8,973 nucleotides of DNA, taken from the IMG/VR virus record IMGVR_UViG_2529292829_000013. One strand, given 5' to 3'. The DNA is from a virus. Its lineage: Duplodnaviria > Heunggongvirae > Uroviricota > Caudoviricetes. The notes under the pieces were generated by a model that searched no databases, was not told the DNA's origin, and was given only the letters and a program-made list of their open reading frames with translations. Numbering within the stretch: the stretch's first letter is position 1; every line of letters begins with the position of its first letter. The position numbers were made by a program, and so were the translations under genes. Positions 1-8,973 of this stretch are shown piece after piece.

Positions 1-291
1 CACACGGACCGTGGAGGCCAGTACTGTTCAGCAGATTATCAGGCGCAACTGAAGCGGCATAATCTGCGTGGAAGTATGAGCGCAAAAGGTTGCTGCTACG
101 ATAATGCCTGCGTGGAAAGCTTCTTTCATTCGCTGAAAGTGGAATGTATCCATGGAGAACACTTTATCAGCCGGGAAATAATGCGGGCAACGGTGTTTAA
201 TTATATCGAATGTGATTACAATCGGTGGCGGCGGCACAGTTGGTGTGGCGGCCTCAGTCCGGAACAATTTGAAAACAAGAACCTCGCTTAG
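1..291 (+). CDS. insF: IS3 transposase OrfB (InsF-type), C-terminal part; 5' end lies outside the window
   Basis: The frame is open from base 1 and translates [55 protein letters not shown]...[11 protein letters not shown], the DDE-transposase C-terminus of IS3 OrfB from memory. The ORF track reports only 76-291 because it starts at the first Met. Confidence 0.8.
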
Positions 292-331
292 GCCTGTGTC
301 CATATTACGTGGGTAGGATCATGCTGTCCTC
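1..331 (+). mobile_element. Right-hand portion of an IS3 element ending in its terminal inverted repeat; the window starts inside the element
   Basis: Bases 290-331 (ggcctgtgtccatattacgtgggtaggatca) match the IS3 right inverted repeat as I recall it (reverse complement TGATCCTACCCACGTAATATGGACACAGGCC); the transposase ORF stops at 289-291 just inside the end. Confidence 0.85.
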
Positions 332-379: not shown

Positions 380-949
380 ATGATCGTAGATGTTGAGGAG
401 AAAACAGTTAATGATTTCTTTAAAAACTACACACTCTCACCTTTTTCTGTAAGAAGGTTTTATCCGTCATACTTGATAGTAGAATGTGAAGATTTTTCAT
501 TGTTAAGGAACTTGGTTGCATGCTTGAATTGTGATAGCAAAACCGTGGATGTAGTTAGAAATCAAATATCACTTGCATGTCTTGCTGTCTTATCTTCAGA
601 GAAAATAGTGCAAAGTTTTTTGTTCGGAAGTCTTAATAGCTTAGGTTGTAAAGTTAAGGCTATTATTCACTCGGATATCTCAGCGTCATGGAGACTTTGT
701 GATATATCTTCAAGATTATATATGAGCGAGAGTTTGTTAAAAAGAAAATTAAAAGACGAAGGATTATCGTTTAGTAAATTAATTCTTGAAGAACGAATGA
801 TGATGGCGCAAAGATTATTGATCTACAGTAACCATACTGTCGGCAAGGTGGCGGGAATATGCGGGTATGACAATGCATCATATTTTGTAAGTGTTTTTAG
901 AGGATATTTTGGTGTGCCTCCGCACCAATATTTATCAAGATTTTCTTAG
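380..949 (+). CDS. AraC/XylS-family transcriptional regulator (AppY/EnvY/GadX-like), apparently N-terminally truncated next to the IS3 end
   Basis: 189-aa ORF whose C-terminal ~90 aa look like an AraC double helix-turn-helix (LLKRKLKDEGLSFSKLILEERMMMAQRLL...GYDNASYFVSVFRGYFGVPPHQY). Family members are usually ~240-260 aa. The frame is open back only to 347, there is no Shine-Dalgarno before the ATG, and the IS3 end is at 331. Confidence 0.7.
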   Translation: MIVDVEEKTVNDFFKNYTLSPFSVRRFYPSYLIVECEDFSLLRNLVACLNCDSKTVDVVRNQISLACLAVLSSEKIVQSFLFGSLNSLGCKVKAIIHSDISASWRLCDISSRLYMSESLLKRKLKDEGLSFSKLILEERMMMAQRLLIYSNHTVGKVAGICGYDNASYFVSVFRGYFGVPPHQYLSRFS

Positions 950-2119: not shown

Positions 2120-2232
2120 AGTCGCCTCTGTGTTTATCAGATTGACATCCTCCTCCCGCCAGTGCCCATCACTGGTGAGGTAAGATTTAACATATCCGGG
2201 GATTTGAAGCCGATAAATCCTGATAAATATCC

Positions 2233-3260
<1,028 letters not shown>

Positions 3261-3622
3261 ATTAATATTAAATCGGATTATTTTTAGCGCTGAATGTGAA
3301 ATTTAAATAAAAAGGACTCTTCCATGAGTCAAAATCCTTGAAATCTTAAGGGTAAGATAAAAGGTCATTAGACAGAATGACACGTTTTATTAATAAATAA
3401 AGCTATTGTTTCATTCGTGTGTTTTTCTTTACAAAAGTAATCCTTGCTATGGTTGGTTAATCATGCGTTAATGGTGTTCTGGTTTGTTACAAAATTATCT
3501 GAAGCAGTCATTGTTATAATTTTATTATTTGTACCTCTTGAGATTTCCTTGTTGGTTTTTCTCTCTGATATTTTTTTCGGACCATTCTGCCCAAGGGCTA
3601 ACTTCTTCAAAAGGTAATAATG
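3261..3622 (+). promoter_or_regulatory. AT-rich promoter and long 5' leader region of the cold-shock gene cspI
   Basis: ~360 bp AT-rich non-coding stretch with a TATAAT at 3516-3521; CspA-family genes characteristically have long structured 5' UTRs. Exact promoter elements are not resolved. Confidence 0.4.
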
Positions 3623-3835
3623 ATGTCTAACAAAATGACTGGTTTAGTGAAATGGTTTAACCCTGAAAAAGGTTTTGGTTTCATCACGCCGAAAGATGGT
3701 AGCAAAGATGTGTTTGTCCATTTCTCAGCTATTCAGAGCAACGATTTCAAAACGTTAACTGAGAATCAGGAAGTCGAATTTGGTATTGAGAACGGACCTA
3801 AAGGCCCCGCGGCTGTTCATGTTGTGGCACTTTGA
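3623..3835 (+). CDS. cspI: Cold-shock protein, CspA family (CspI)
   Basis: 70-aa product [70 protein letters not shown] with RNP1/RNP2 motifs (KGFGFI, VFVHF); the ORF track starts one codon earlier at 3620. Confidence 0.92.
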
Positions 3836-4034
3836 GGTAGAAAATATTACAAACCATATTCACTTTAGATGCCCGTGTTGCCATGGTTCTCAGTATAGAA
3901 CATCATCTTTTGATGTTTCTGACAGGAATCCTTTCGGGGCAAAATGTATCTTTTGTAAATCAATGATGATTACATTTGATAATATTTCACAATACTTAAA
4001 TGTTAGCCGTCTATCGTTAGATTTAAGAAAGTGA
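3819..4034 (+). CDS. Putative small zinc-ribbon protein (CPCC...CIFC), overlapping the 3' end of cspI in another frame; start uncertain
   Basis: ORF contains C-P-C-C, 21 residues, then C-I-F-C, a classic zinc-ribbon spacing; its stop at 4032-4034 is followed directly by a strong terminator. The only in-frame ATG (3819) lies inside cspI and has no good SD. Confidence 0.3.
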
Positions 4035-4039
4035 AAATG

Positions 4040-4062
4040 AAGGCTCCTTCGGGAGCTTTTTT
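4040..4062 (+). terminator. Rho-independent terminator with a UUCG tetraloop
   Basis: aaGGCTCC ttcg GGAGCtt followed by tttttt (4057-4062). Confidence 0.8.
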
Positions 4063-4180
4063 GCTTAGTGTCTAGTCGATGGATACTCACATATTACGGT
4101 AACATTATGAAAAAAATAATAGTTTTTTTAACTCTGAACCAGCAATGGTAGTGCCAGTGATGACCGGAGTTAACACCATC

Positions 4181-4336
4181 ATGCGTGAATATCCAAATGG
4201 CGAAACAACACACCTCACTGTAATGGCTGCAGGGTTTCCATCTCTGACCGGAGATCATAAAGTCATTTATGTAGCAGCGGATCGACATGTAACTTCAGAA
4301 GAAATTCTGGAAGCAGCAATGAGACTCTTGAATTGA
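4181..4336 (+). CDS. ynfN: YnfN-like small prophage protein (51 aa)
   Basis: MREYPNGETTHLTVMAAGFPSLTGDHKVIYVAADRHVTSEEILEAAMRLLN; the length and position (between cspI and the gns gene) match what I recall for Qin ynfN; the sequence itself is not recalled. The ORF-track start at 4145 has no RBS support. Confidence 0.5.
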   Translation: MREYPNGETTHLTVMAAGFPSLTGDHKVIYVAADRHVTSEEILEAAMRLLN

Positions 4337-4508
4337 TTTGATTCTAATGCATTGATAATAAATGATAATCATCTTTATCTGTTTGTGTGAAATTTAGACC
4401 GTCGTATGTTGATTATTGCGATGTTTCATCTTATCTTTTATACGTTTGCTCCATATAATTGACACTACTGTGTACCAGGAAAGTCATAACAGACTAAAAG
4501 AGGAAATG

Positions 4509-4682
4509 ATGAACATTGAAGAGTTAAAAACAAAAACAGAAGCAGATATTTCTGAATATATAACAAAAAAAATCATTGAGCTTAAGAAAAAGACCGGGAA
4601 AGAAGTTACCAGTATCCAGTTTACTGCACGGGAAAAAATGACTGGTCTTGAAAGCTATGATATCAAGATTGATTTAATCTAG
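4509..4682 (+). CDS. gnsB: GnsA/GnsB-family protein (57 aa)
   Basis: MNIEELKTKTEADISEYITKKIIELKKKTGKEVTSIQFTAREKMTGLESYDIKIDLI; strong SD aaGAGGAa upstream; resembles GnsA/GnsB (MNIEELK...TGKEV...FTAREKMTGLESYD) but appears diverged from the K-12 sequence as I recall it. Confidence 0.75.
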   Translation: MNIEELKTKTEADISEYITKKIIELKKKTGKEVTSIQFTAREKMTGLESYDIKIDLI

Positions 4683-5530: not shown

Positions 5531-5570
5531 GTGGGGGGCCCTGCCACGGGGCGGGAGCGTCGCGGAAAAA
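5531..5570 (+). other. Lambda-like cohesive-end site (cosN-like core), with a probable cosB region extending to the Nu1-like start
   Basis: cacggggcgggagcgtcgcgg (5545-5565) resembles the lambda cosN region ACGGGGCGGCGACCTCGCGGG; it sits ~185 bp upstream of the Nu1-like ATG at 5735, matching lambda's cos-to-Nu1 spacing. Confidence 0.5.
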
Positions 5571-5734: not shown

Positions 5735-5980
5735 ATGGATCGAGAGTTAAAAAATCTGACGCTGAATATCAGTCAACTGGCGGCACTGTCAGGTGTACAT
5801 CGCCAGACTGCTGCGGCAAGGCTGCAAAATCTACCCGTTGCAGGGGGGCATGAAAGCAACCTCAAGCTTTATCGGGTGGTTGATATTGTGTCGGCATTTC
5901 TGGCATTACCACCGCCGGTTGCAGAAGGCGAAATGGACGCGCATGAGCGCAAAGCCTGGTACCTTCTGCCCGTAAGGTGA
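5735..5980 (+). pseudogene. nohQ: Terminase small subunit (Nu1 homolog, NohQ/NohA-like), C-terminally truncated fragment
   Basis: N-terminal HTH region (NISQLAALSGVHRQTAAARLQNLPVAGGHESNLKLYRVV) parallels lambda Nu1; the ORF stops after 81 aa (Nu1 is ~180 aa) and the tail-fibre frame begins at the same point. Confidence 0.7.
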
Positions 5981-7160
5981 ATGGTAAGGCGCTTTCAGCT
6001 GATATAACACTGACGCCGAAAGATATTGGTACGCTTAACTCAACAACAATGTCATTCAGCGGTGGTGCTGGTTGGTTCAAATTAGCAACGGTAACCATGC
6101 CACAGGCGAGTTCTGTTGTTTCAATTACGTTGATTGGTGGCGCGGGATTTAACGTGGGGTCACCTCAACAGGCAGGTATATCTGAACTTGTTTTGCGTGC
6201 AGGTAATGGTAATCCGAAGGGGATTACTGGTGCTTTATGGCAGCGCACATCGACAGGGTTTACAAATTTTGCCTGGGTCAATACATCTGGTGATACTTAC
6301 GATATTTACGTTGCAATCGGAAATTATGCGACTGGTGTAAATATTCAATGGGATTATACCAGTAATGCCAGCGTGACGATTCATACGTCACCAGCATATT
6401 CTGCTAATAAGCCGGAAGGGTTAACGGACGGTACAGTTTATTCACTCTATACGCCATCAGAGCAGTTTTATCCGCCTGGCGCACCAATCCCGTGGCCATC
6501 AGATACCGTTCCGTCTGGCTATGCCCTGATGCAGGGGCAGACTTTTGACAAATCTGCCTACCCGAAACTTGCAGCCGCTTATCCGTCAGGCGTGATCCCT
6601 GATATGCGTGGCTGGACGATTAAGGGCAAACCTGCCAGTGGTCGTGCCGTATTGTCTCAGGAACAGGACGGCATTAAATCGCACACCCACAGCGCCAGCG
6701 CATCCAGTACGGATTTGGGGACGAAAAACACATCGTCGTTTGATTACGGAACCAAATCCACGAATAACACCGGGGCGCATACCCATAGTATTAGCGGGAC
6801 TGCAAATAGTGCCGGTGCGCACCAACACAAGAGTTCCGGTGCATTTGGTGGCACGAACACGAGCATTTTCCCTAATGGTTATACCGCGATTTCAAATCTA
6901 AGCGCGGGGATTATGAGCACAACAAGCGGTAGTGGCCAGACTCGTAATGCAGGGAAGACATCATCAGATGGTGCTCATACCCACTCGCTGTCCGGCACTG
7001 CTGCAAGCGCAGGCGCACATGCACATACTGTCGTATTGGTGCTCATACGCACTCCGTTGCGATTGGCTCACATGGACACACCATCACCGTTAACGCTGCT
7101 GGTAACGCGGAAAACACCGTCAAAAACATCGCATTTAACTATATTGTGAGGCTTGCATAA
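5977..7160 (+). pseudogene. stfQ: Side tail fibre protein, C-terminal portion only (StfQ/StfR-like), with a 1-nt frameshift near 7033
   Basis: No ATG start; the frame opens at 5947 inside the nohQ fragment. The product has His-rich GAHTHS-type repeats typical of Stf C-termini. After ...SAGAHAHTV the listed frame gives [15 protein letters not shown]..., while the other frame from 7035 gives [42 protein letters not shown] and ends at TAA 7158-7160, overlapping the tfa ATG. Confidence 0.75.
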
Positions 7161-7735
7161 TGGCATTCAGAATGAGTGAACAACCACGGACCATAAAAAT
7201 TTATAATCTGCTGGCCGGAACTAATGAATTTATTGGTGAAGGTGACGCATATATTCCGCCTCATACAGGTCTGCCAGCAAACAGTACCGATATTGCACCG
7301 CCAGATATTCCGGCAGGCTTCGTGGCTGTTTTCAACAGTGATGAGGCATCGTGGCATCTCGTTGAAGATCATCGGGGTAAAACCGTCTATGACGTGGCTT
7401 CCGGCGACGCGTTATTTATTTCTGAACTCGGTCCGTTACCGGAAAATGTTACCTGGTTATCGCCGGAAGGGGAGTTTCAGAAGTGGAACGGCACAGCCTG
7501 GGTGAAGGATACGGAAGCAGAAAAACTGTTCCGGATCCGGGAGGCGGAAGAAACAAAAAACAACCTGATGCAGGTAGCCAGTGAGCATATTGCGCCGCTT
7601 CAGGATGCTGCAGATCTGGAAATTGCAACGGAGGAAGAAATCTCGTTGCTGGAAGCATGGAAAAAGTATCGGGTATTGCTGAACCGTGTTGATACGTCAA
7701 CTTCACAGGATATTGAATGGCCAGCACTGCCGTAG
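7160..7735 (+). CDS. tfaQ: Tail fibre assembly protein (Tfa)
   Basis: 191 aa, [39 protein letters not shown]...; GAGG 8 nt upstream; sits immediately downstream of stf as in lambdoid stf-tfa pairs. Confidence 0.9.
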
Positions 7736-7832
7736 GGTAAAACATATAAATTCTATAATTAGATGTATCTTTCCATTTACGGCAAGGAAGGGGGCTTGGA
7801 AGACGTAAAGCATCTCACACCGAGATTATTTT

Positions 7833-8423
7833 TTATATGTCAGGTGTCTGAAGTTTTGCTTTGGCTCTTAAAATGGTTTGCCGCGAGGTTTTGAATTCCC
7901 GGGCAATGGCACTTATACTTACACCTGACTTAATTCGTTCGAATACCACCTGTTTCTGTTCTTCATTTAACACAGGTGGTCGACCAAAACGTTTCCCTGC
8001 GCCGCGGGCTCTTACTATCCCGGAATGAGTGCGTTCAAGTAAAAGGTCTCGTTCAAATTCAGCGACTGCTGAAATTACTTGCATCATCATTTTTCCTGTT
8101 GGACTGGTCAGGTCAATGCCACCCAATGCCAAGCAATGCACTCTGATACCTGTTTCGGTCAGTTGTTCCACTGTTTTCCTGATATCCATTGCATTACAAC
8201 CAAGGCGATCCAGTTTTGTCACAATCAATTGATCACCACATTTCAGGCGAGCAAGCAACCGGTTAAAACCAGGACGCTCACTGGTTGCTGCTGAGCCGCT
8301 AATGTGTTCTTCGATTATTTGCTGAGGTTTGATTTTAAAACCTGCACTTTCGATTTCCCGGCGTTGATTTTCGGTGGTCTGATCCAGCGTTGATATCCGA
8401 CAGTAAGCAAAAATTTGAGACAT
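7833..8423 (-). CDS. pinQ: Serine recombinase / DNA invertase of the Pin/Gin/Hin family
   Basis: 196 aa, [31 protein letters not shown]... with the catalytic Ser motif (YCRIST) and a C-terminal HTH ([18 protein letters not shown]). Confidence 0.9.
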
Positions 8424-8739
8424 AGTGAGACTCTATACGAAATTGGTGTTCATATCATAATGCATCTCAGAAAATAATTATGATTATTTTTGTGCATATT
8501 TGTATGTACACGTTCGAAAATAAACGAATGCGTATGCAACCCCGTAATTTTGGTGAGACCCAAAATCGATTTTGTGAAAAATGGCTTTAACTCGGTTTGT
8601 TTTTCGAGTTCCGGGCGGACTCAAGGAAGAAGAATAGTGTTGCGTGTTATTTTAACCAGATTTCAAGTTGTTTGGACGTGGAAAAGTGGAGCAAAATGTT
8701 GTTGAAGTGGAAAAATGATAAAAAAGTAAGTTTATTATA

Positions 8740-8973
8740 TTACATTTTACCATTTAAATTTTGGTTGTCTTTAAGAACTGATATCGCTGTTTGTAATAAT
8801 TCTTTGTTATCCAGCCATGATTTTTTCTTTATGTTTCCTTCAATGTAATCAAGCAATGTTCTGGTATTAATAGGTCTTCCCTGTTTTGCTACTTCCACTA
8901 CAGCATCCCCTAGGATAATTCTTACTTCAGGAAGCTGCGCAGGGAACCACTTTAGGGTGTCTTTTGATTTCAT
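8740..8973 (-). CDS. ydfK: YdfK/YnaE-family small prophage protein (cold-shock-associated); start codon is the last three bases of the window
   Basis: 77 aa, MKSKDTLKWFPAQLPEVRIILGDAVVEVAKQGRPINTRTLLDYIEGNIKKKSWLDNKELLQTAISVLKDNQNLNGKM. Confidence 0.85.
   Translation of the reverse strand: MKSKDTLKWFPAQLPEVRIILGDAVVEVAKQGRPINTRTLLDYIEGNIKKKSWLDNKELLQTAISVLKDNQNLNGKM

Follow-up and report, generated by a model that had tools for sequence, protein, structure and literature searches.

A deletion scar in a Qin-site prophage of Escherichia coli at a recurrent TA breakpoint of the side-tail-fibre gene

The window analysed here, meaning the whole stretch of 8,973 nt of viral DNA, carries a deletion scar in which the beginning of a small-terminase gene is fused directly to the C-terminal part of a side-tail-fibre gene (stf). 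The stf side of this joint is not random: the same TA in stf is the breakpoint of many other rearrangements. The best explanation overall, to which we assign a probability of roughly 0.55, combines the deletion scar and the recurrent stf TA with a conservative exchange resembling that of serine recombinases. A literature search for a hotspot described at this site returned nothing relevant and, to our knowledge, a recurrent TA crossover point in this common tail-fibre module is undescribed in the literature searched.

Taken by itself, the scar is ordinary prophage decay, already flagged by automatic annotation, and a single joint is one more example of prophages becoming cryptic. It is the recurrent breakpoint that matters. 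If it is true that an enzyme keeps cutting this TA, the loss of virion genes would be directed and repeatable, not purely random decay. This would help to explain the shared architecture of cryptic prophages, in which lysis genes and cos meet a fibre tip, tfa and pin, and it would provide a new recombination site directly testable in the laboratory.

The prophage and its deletion scar

Over all 8,973 nt the window is 99.84% identical to NZ_CP061758 (E. coli O68:H12 strain 97.3), from which it differs by 12 substitutions and 2 one-base indels. It is the late region of a lambdoid prophage at the Qin site (ydfJ) of a non-K-12 E. coli. The site is identified by ydfK at the end of the window and by ynfT, then a 5'-truncated ydfJ and then ydfI, which continue beyond its right end in NZ_CP061758. 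The gene content is likewise that of Qin, namely essQ-rrrQ-rzpQ-cspI-ynfN-gnsB ... stfQ-tfaQ-pinQ, as judged by Pfam matches and PGAP names (Table 1).

Table 1. Features of the window, with coordinates, strand and the evidence for each; L004 is the reference prophage of strain BDSF8-3
Feature	Position	Strand	Evidence or remark
IS3 end	1-321		ORF list, Pfam scan
AraC-type regulator, C-terminal part	380-949		ORF list, Pfam scan
Class II holin	after AraC-type regulator		ORF list, Pfam scan
ydfR-type gene, disrupted	after holin		ORF list, Pfam scan
Lysozyme	2233-2766		ORF list, Pfam scan
Rz-type gene	2763-3260		ORF list, Pfam scan
cspI	3620-3835		ORF list, Pfam scan
ynfN, gnsB	between cspI and 81-codon ORF		ORF list, Pfam scan
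cosN-like cohesive-end sequence GGGCGGGAGCGT	5549-5560	+	equals bases 1-12 of the phage Tritos linear record
Small-terminase 5' fragment, codons 1-75 plus 2 nt (227 nt)	5735-5961	+	Pfam, PHROG, L004 11746-11972
Chimeric 81-codon ORF, 76 terminase residues plus LLPVR from stf DNA	5735-5980	+	ATG start, stop TGA at 5978-5980
Joint	5958-5961	.	GGTA common to both parents (three-way alignment)
Crossover dinucleotide TA	5960-5961	.	common to all rearrangements at the stf site
stf 3' fragment, codons 588-987	5959-7160	+	collinear with L004 32575-33777
Single-base deletion (A missing)	7032-7033	+	base present in L001, L002 and L004
tfaQ, tail-fibre assembly gene, intact	7160-7735	+	Pfam Caudo_TAP, E 2.2e-42; annotated tfaQ in L001 and L004
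pinQ, small serine recombinase (DNA invertase family), intact	7833-8423	-	Pfam Resolvase and HTH_7; annotated pinQ
ydfK, right edge	8740-8973	-	ORF list

The initial annotation described a Nu1-like ORF that stops after 81 aa and a tail-fibre frame, devoid of an ATG, that opens inside it. Both reading frames are as described, and the terminase assignment holds for position and presumed role but not for family. Residues 1-76 of the 81-codon ORF match positions 1-72 of 147 of Pfam DUF1441 (E 3.3e-13) and coincide exactly with the N-terminal 76 residues of a 164-aa protein from the intact prophage. The fragment also matches PHROG 141, 'terminase small subunit', with an E value of 5.9e-25 (7.2e-74 for the full protein). 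Its nucleotide sequence equals L004 11746-11972 at every position (100% identity); this is the start of the 164-codon gene, which in intact prophages and phages immediately precedes the gene for the terminase large subunit. Profile and position, between cos and the large subunit, thus point to a small terminase of the PHROG 141/DUF1441 type. Neither the fragment nor the 164-aa protein matches Pfam Phage_Nu1 (PF07471), both matching only DUF1441 (PF07278), and the cross-match to the Nu1-type phrog_57 is weak (8.2e-10). NohA of K-12 matches Phage_Nu1 at 2.7e-101, and BLASTP of the DUF1441-type protein against it gave nothing significant. A sequence-only search for a structural link between DUF1441 and Nu1 found no solved relative, and a literature search on DUF1441 function found nothing relevant. 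PGAP labels this stretch of NZ_CP061758 'DUF1441 family protein, incomplete, missing C-terminus'.

The fibre piece is truncated at the other end. Intact Stf of 987 aa carries phage_tail_N at residues 1-134 and Phage_fiber_2 repeats up to residue 590. Lambdoid Stf proteins combine PF08400, fibre repeats and a C-terminal collar/GxHxH with an adjoining tfa; the window piece has lost the N-terminal tail-attachment domain and keeps only Pfam Collar and Phage_fiber, and is therefore a fragment, not a member gene. PGAP likewise calls it 'phage tail protein, incomplete, missing N-terminus'. The frame is already open just 5' of 5959 and lacks its own initiator; the GTG at 5977, taken as a start in the ORF list, is an internal valine codon, V594, of the 987-codon gene. 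The single-base deletion at 7032-7033 shifts the frame of the last 42 codons, so that the open frame stops at 7149 and not at 7160. This copy of stf is thus doubly defective, and the frameshift could be either a true mutation or a sequencing error.

The terminase remnant ends in a stop codon that shares bases with an in-frame GTG of the fibre remnant (GTGA, 5977-5980). Judged from the sequence, translation of the two could be coupled in this way, and a fibre-tip fragment could be expressed. By analogy with StfE2, which is reported to be a receptor-blocking protein (PMC12529663), expression of this kind might matter in relatives that are free of the extra frameshift. The same overlap, together with the annotation of the StfQ remnant of K-12 as a protein, could be taken to mean that the 81-codon and 390-codon ORFs are genuine stand-alone genes. 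As an account of their origin this is refuted, with a negligible probability. Each is collinear and nearly identical with part of a far longer gene, 76 residues of the 81-aa ORF being the first part of the 164-aa protein and 5977-7160 the 3' part of the 987-codon gene, which excludes both refuting conditions named in the initial annotation. Start codons and ribosome-binding spacing proper to them are lacking, the stf piece has the extra frameshift, and PGAP flags both as partial.

The joint was placed by alignment to locus L004, an apparently complete prophage of strain BDSF8-3 (NZ_CM141451) that likewise resides at the ydfJ (Qin) site. Its gene order is the 164-codon DUF1441 gene, terminase large subunit, portal, a protease/capsid fusion and tail genes, then tape measure, J, lom, the 987-codon stf, tfaQ and pinQ. 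Homology on the left stops at window 5961 (L004 11972), its final 602 nt containing 4 differences, and homology on the right begins at window 5958 (L004 32574), with 8 differences in 1765 nt. In L004 the two points are 20,605 bp apart. Such a match of both flanks across a 20,605-bp gap is far beyond chance, and the fusion is a deletion scar at a Qin-site prophage. It joins codon 76 of the small terminase to codon 588 of the side-tail fibre, out of frame. The DNA lost comprises the 3' half of the small-terminase gene, everything from the terminase large subunit through Lom, and the first 587 stf codons, that is, 18 complete morphogenesis genes and parts of two. Among the 18 are those for the terminase large subunit, portal, protease/capsid fusion, head-tail and tail proteins, tape measure, J and Lom. 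The fusion had been noticed from the sequence alone and assigned to 5947-5980; the alignment confirms it and narrows the true joint to 5958-5962, and the predicted loss of about 20 kb of morphogenesis genes agrees well with the comparison to BDSF8-3.

Both remnants are pseudogenes, and RefSeq treats both as partial pseudogenes in six near-identical genomes. With the whole morphogenesis set removed as well, packaging of DNA and building of particles are impossible, which bears out the earlier view that the prophage cannot form virions: all head and tail genes are absent. What it keeps is cos, the lysis cassette, accessory genes of the cspI/gnsB type, tfa and pin. This retention had also been proposed, correctly, since holin, lysozyme, Rz-type gene, tfa and pin are intact ORFs and cos matches the end of phage Tritos. 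The cohesive-end sequence GGGCGGGAGCGT lies 175 nt upstream of the small-terminase start codon, and the opposite end of the Tritos linear genome record stops at window 5548. It resembles the lambda cosN sequence, GGGCGGCGACCT.

The joint itself is present in 6 of 5,426 complete E. coli genomes and absent from the GTDB species representatives and metagenomes scanned; in IMG/VR the sole match is a prophage of the strain-26561 type.

A recurrent breakpoint in stf

In strain 26561 a prophage next to prfC consists at this place of three joined pieces: a terminase fragment, a tape-measure remnant and an stf fragment. The terminase fragment ends, and the stf fragment starts, at the same TAs as in the window. 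The tape-measure remnant, also found in locus L005, is 664 bp long (L002 6592-7255) and in frame. Its left joint connects the terminase TA to GGC-TA-CCCGAC of the tape-measure gene, which is again an exchange at TA, and both sites of this left joint resemble the hotspot core. Because of this coincidence, it was asked whether the stf breakpoint is special.

The first sample comprised all 106 IMG/VR loci that contain a 26-mer located 140 nt to the right of the stf site, and was thus chosen independently of the joint. Joints were located by walking leftward against intact stf. In 21 of the 106 loci homology is lost inside L004 32572-32577, a span of 6 nt, and about 16 different left flanks are attached there. 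The 140 nt between the site and the 26-mer contain at most one other candidate joint, the remaining pile-ups of breakpoints being allelic mosaic boundaries within the fibre repeats. Overall, TA followed by CCTTCTGCCCGTAAGG (TA being window 5960-5961) is joined to about 22 different left partners drawn from viral contigs, metagenomes and complete genomes. These partners lie in small- and large-terminase genes of several types, portal, tape measure, J (two points), the lom-stf region, stf itself (two points), ynaK of Rac, the dicB region, a DLP12-like bor region and a P2-like capsid gene. The joint of terminase large subunit to stf occurs in 11 complete genomes, and four further joint types, among them the gpA-Stf chimera described below, were also found in complete genomes. 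The internal stf deletion of the L129 type is likewise present in the complete genomes of 23CRST047 and 23CRST021. In an independent replication scan, the site was intact in 68 of 74 metagenome loci, and the other 6 had joints belonging to 5 types already known. As no new joint type appeared among these 74 loci, the events may be few and old.

Only three of the joints are in frame, so selection of fusion proteins is not the cause. In-frame chimeras, as in L150, L013 and L142, comprise terminase large subunit-Stf, J-Stf and an Stf N-domain joined to the fibre tip. The gpA (terminase large subunit)-Stf chimera of L150 (714-3722, strain JKHS016) is annotated by PGAP as one intact terminase protein of 1002 aa; chimeras of this kind, whether terminase-fibre or J-fibre, can pass as intact proteins in annotation pipelines.

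The 26561 prophage also suggests a two-step origin of the window joint, as a sub-route of the preferred explanation. A 26561-like ancestor would have lost the 664-bp remnant between the CCTGGTACC and CCTGTACC joints. Both 26561 and IMG/VR locus L005 share the two outer breakpoints with the window, and removal of the remnant between its flanking GTACC repeats recreates the window joint base for base. The one-step and the two-step routes yield an identical sequence. This detour seems unlikely, however. The 26561 prophage is at another site, prfC, its left flank is 9% diverged from that of the window, and no Qin-site genome with the remnant occurs among the 5,426 searched. Independent use of the same two TAs is plausible given the stf hotspot and a terminase TA that is a good look-alike (GGTAtC). 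The near-identity of the window flanks to an intact Qin-site prophage favours the one-step origin.

Candidate mechanisms of the exchange

In 15 of the 17 recoverable cases the parental partner sequence has TA at the crossover (chance, 1 in 16 each), so that both partners show the identical central dinucleotide expected of a serine-type exchange; the two exceptions are CA in L131 and TG in L142. Beyond TA the partners show a weak GGTAnC tendency, and many share only TA with the site. Their likeness to the hotspot around the core averages 5.9 matches of 16, vs. 4.05 (sd 1.8) for random TA sites, and G is enriched at partner positions -1 and -2. The L111 joint has 8 nt of homology; this and the G enrichment also fit microhomology-assisted joining.

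Two contigs, L014 and L147, come from one metagenome. In L014 (X-left, TA, D-right) inverted portal-region DNA is joined to the right side of the site, and in L147 (D-left, TA, X-right) the left side of the site is joined to the other side of the same portal point. In both contigs the sequence changes over at a shared (G)TA without loss or gain of a base. Read together, the two contigs would represent the reciprocal products of a conservative 17-kb inversion, though not proven to come from one genome. This inversion joint was not found in complete genomes.

One rival account of the window joint is illegitimate recombination at short homology, by slippage or microhomology end joining between GGTA and GGTA, as a single random deletion of 20.6 kb, with the shared breakpoint being due to coincidence or common descent. 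It has in its favour the perfect homology of 4 bp, the 11 of 17 positions that match between the parents around the joint, and flanks that are nearly identical to the intact Qin-site prophage, suggesting a recent, simple event. Other deletions in related prophages do use microhomology other than TA, e.g., joint 1 of L013. As an explanation of the site it is nevertheless strongly disfavoured, and we regard it as improbable: about 22 left partners converge on the same 2-6 nt within a gene of 3 kb, a pile-up not expected of random breakpoints, many joints share only TA with the site, and L014 and L147 would form an exactly reciprocal inversion. RecA-independent deletions between short repeats of the lacI type also have a few bases of homology, like GGTA here, at the joints of large deletions. 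They differ in being scattered according to repeat quality, rather than having one end fixed to within 2-6 nt in about 22 events, a constant TA and an apparently reciprocal inversion. Spontaneous deletions between short direct repeats were reportedly described by Albertini et al. in 1982.

A nuclease could instead make a site-specific double-strand break in stf, leaving a short TA overhang, after which the left end would be degraded to a variable extent and rejoined at the first usable TA microhomology. This scheme agrees with one fixed and one variable end, with TA at the joint and G enriched just to its left, with all deletions running leftward, and with the presence of GGTACC/GTAC in the site. 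GGTACC and GTAC are recognition sequences of known restriction enzymes. A loss-free reciprocal inversion would be unexpected from a break followed by resection and end joining, and no like behaviour is known for other GTAC/GGTACC sites in the prophage, which leaves this scheme quite unlikely. No rightward deletion from the site was seen among 50 loci, and this lack is not predicted by a symmetric recombination site. The observation is only suggestive, far less dispensable DNA being available on that side.

Subunit exchange by DNA gyrase (type II topoisomerase) at a strong cleavage site would also be conservative, here with a 4-nt GGTA stagger. At least three of the four GGTA bases match in all 8 of the 8 hand-checked D partner sites with an L004 parent. 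Ikeda and colleagues are said to have described gyrase-mediated illegitimate recombination with hotspots in the formation of lambda bio transducing phages. The strict requirement, however, concerns the inner TA only and not four bases, and partners found later carry A, T or C at positions -1 and -2. A gyrase origin thus appears very improbable.

In the preferred explanation, a fixed site, promiscuous partners sharing a 2-bp core, the palindromic nature of this core and conservative products fit a serine recombinase better than random slippage. Serine recombinases need complementary 2-nt central overhangs for religation, and a palindromic core lets the sites align either way (PMC5062993). By this chemistry, conservative breakage and rejoining would proceed with a 2-nt stagger at the palindromic TA. 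We infer that the preferred stf site would recombine with look-alike TA sites, roughly GGTAnC, within the same prophage; directly oriented partners would give deletions, as here, and inverted partners would give inversions. More specifically, the TA at codon 588 may be the preferred crossover of an uncharacterised serine-type activity that repeatedly amputates lambdoid and P2-like prophages. It would delete or invert the interval from the packaging or early genes to the fibre tip and always spare the receptor-binding end, tfa and, where present, pin. This extended reading is tentative and falls somewhat short of an even chance; if true, prophages would become domesticated by a route that is programmed or at least driven by an enzyme.

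DNA invertases acting on quasi sites offer a close parallel. With Cin, Gin, Hin and Pin, too, one good site recombines with many poorly related partners that share the central dinucleotide, inversions or deletions arise with no base lost, and a tail-fibre gene lies beside the invertase gene. Recombination of phage P1 Cin at quasi-cix sites is reportedly the subject of work by Iida and Hiestand-Nauer. The present site differs from Din-family sites in that its TA core is flanked by GG/CC, the AAACC-NN-GGTTT half-sites are missing and no natural inverted partner was found. The only two loci of relatives with both orientations proved to be chance matches inside J.

The enzyme might, speculatively, be a Pin-family invertase encoded 1.9 kb away or supplied in trans. 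Intact pin lies beside the site in the window and in several other joint-bearing prophages, and pinQ is a candidate, albeit unproven, catalyst of the joint. For at least five joint types, the prophage DNA to the right of the site is free of pin over 2.4 kb or more. PinQ is active, able to act in trans and acts on the pix sites of e14 (PMC12529663). Its inversion of the e14 P segment, which underlies the StfE2 anti-T2 defence, involves the same recombinase family and, as here, C-terminal tail-fibre remnants of a cryptic prophage. It differs in being a reversible inversion between canonical 16-bp inverted repeats in a region coding for ENLGLGEG (PMC12529663), whereas the hotspot events are irreversible deletions at an unrelated sequence.

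The earlier proposal to look for microhomology or a recombinase site at the breakpoint was answered in part: GGTA microhomology is present and no Pin- or Din-type site was found, yet the breakpoint recurs. Over 26 bp, the dyad symmetry of the hotspot is confined to GGTACC and the sequence does not look like the e14 pix sites; the Din-family crossover site (26 bp, inverted 12-bp half-sites around a 2-bp core, ..AAACC) was found neither there nor elsewhere in the window. A Pin crossover at the joint was rejected: neither the window nor L004 contains the e14 pix 16-mer, even with 3 mismatches allowed. The resemblance of CCTTCT to e14 pix is coincidental, because the latter lies in another coding motif. 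No 26-mer of the window exceeds 17/26 identity to pixL/pixR, the level of shuffled sequence, and a Din-like 26-mer upstream of pin (8555-8580), 15/26 identical to pixR, is at or below the shuffle maxima. A generic scan with AAACCNNGGTTT gave 4 matches vs. 5.4 expected.

Other structures were rejected as well. A supposed inverted copy of the hotspot between tfa and pin reaches a local alignment score of 23, shuffled sequences giving 17.3 +/- 3.3 with a maximum of 36. DNA folding z-scores of -0.08 and 0.21 for the intact sequence do not indicate a hairpin or cruciform. Nor is the hotspot the end of a mobile element: the left gene that is interrupted does not resume beyond tfa/pin on the right, and no terminal inverted repeat is present.

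Related defective prophages and other features of the window

A comparison with the nohQ-stfQ junction of K-12 Qin had also been suggested. The locus is the same, but the joint is not. K-12 Qin shares with the window the chromosomal site next to truncated ydfJ, with ydfK/ynfT, and the order of lysis genes, cspI, ynfN, gnsB, packaging remnant, stf remnant, tfaQ and pinQ, and the morphogenesis module is missing in both. Identity is 92.6% over 2223-4680 and 98.8% over 6464-8973, homology around stf resuming only from 6464. In K-12 the packaging remnant is a lambda Nu1-type gene (Phage_Nu1, 189 aa, almost full length) accompanied by ynfO/ydfO, vs. the DUF1441 type here. The break in K-12 is right at the end of Nu1, and on the stf side it falls at another point of another allele. 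The nohA-stfQ joint of K-12 is a separate, independent deletion.

Another defective prophage, next to bioA/ybhB in strains 23CRST047 and 23CRST021 (L006/L007, 4404-7207), contains a packaging fragment of the Nu1 type that is joined, at another point, to part of a tail-fibre gene. It also carries an internal stf deletion that ends at the hotspot.

Several smaller observations concern the left part of the window. The IS3 end sits in the gene for the AraC-family regulator. In the strain with the intact prophage IS3 occupies another place in the opposite orientation, and the two insertions are therefore independent. At the ydfR/rrrQ boundary, 663 bp (1560-2222) stand in place of 98 bp of the intact relative. 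This replacement lengthens the DUF1327 ORF to 190 codons and holds an antisense ORF of 86 codons (1859-2119), which has no Pfam match and is a hypothetical protein according to PGAP. Just 5' of ynfN, at 4122, the run of T is T7 vs. T8 in the closest genome, and this difference alters the possible N-terminal extension of ynfN. Two Rfam families score above the gathering threshold: the cspA thermoregulator over the leader and gene of cspI (3466-3881, 111 bits) and family IS009 inside tfa (7503-7701, 221 bits).
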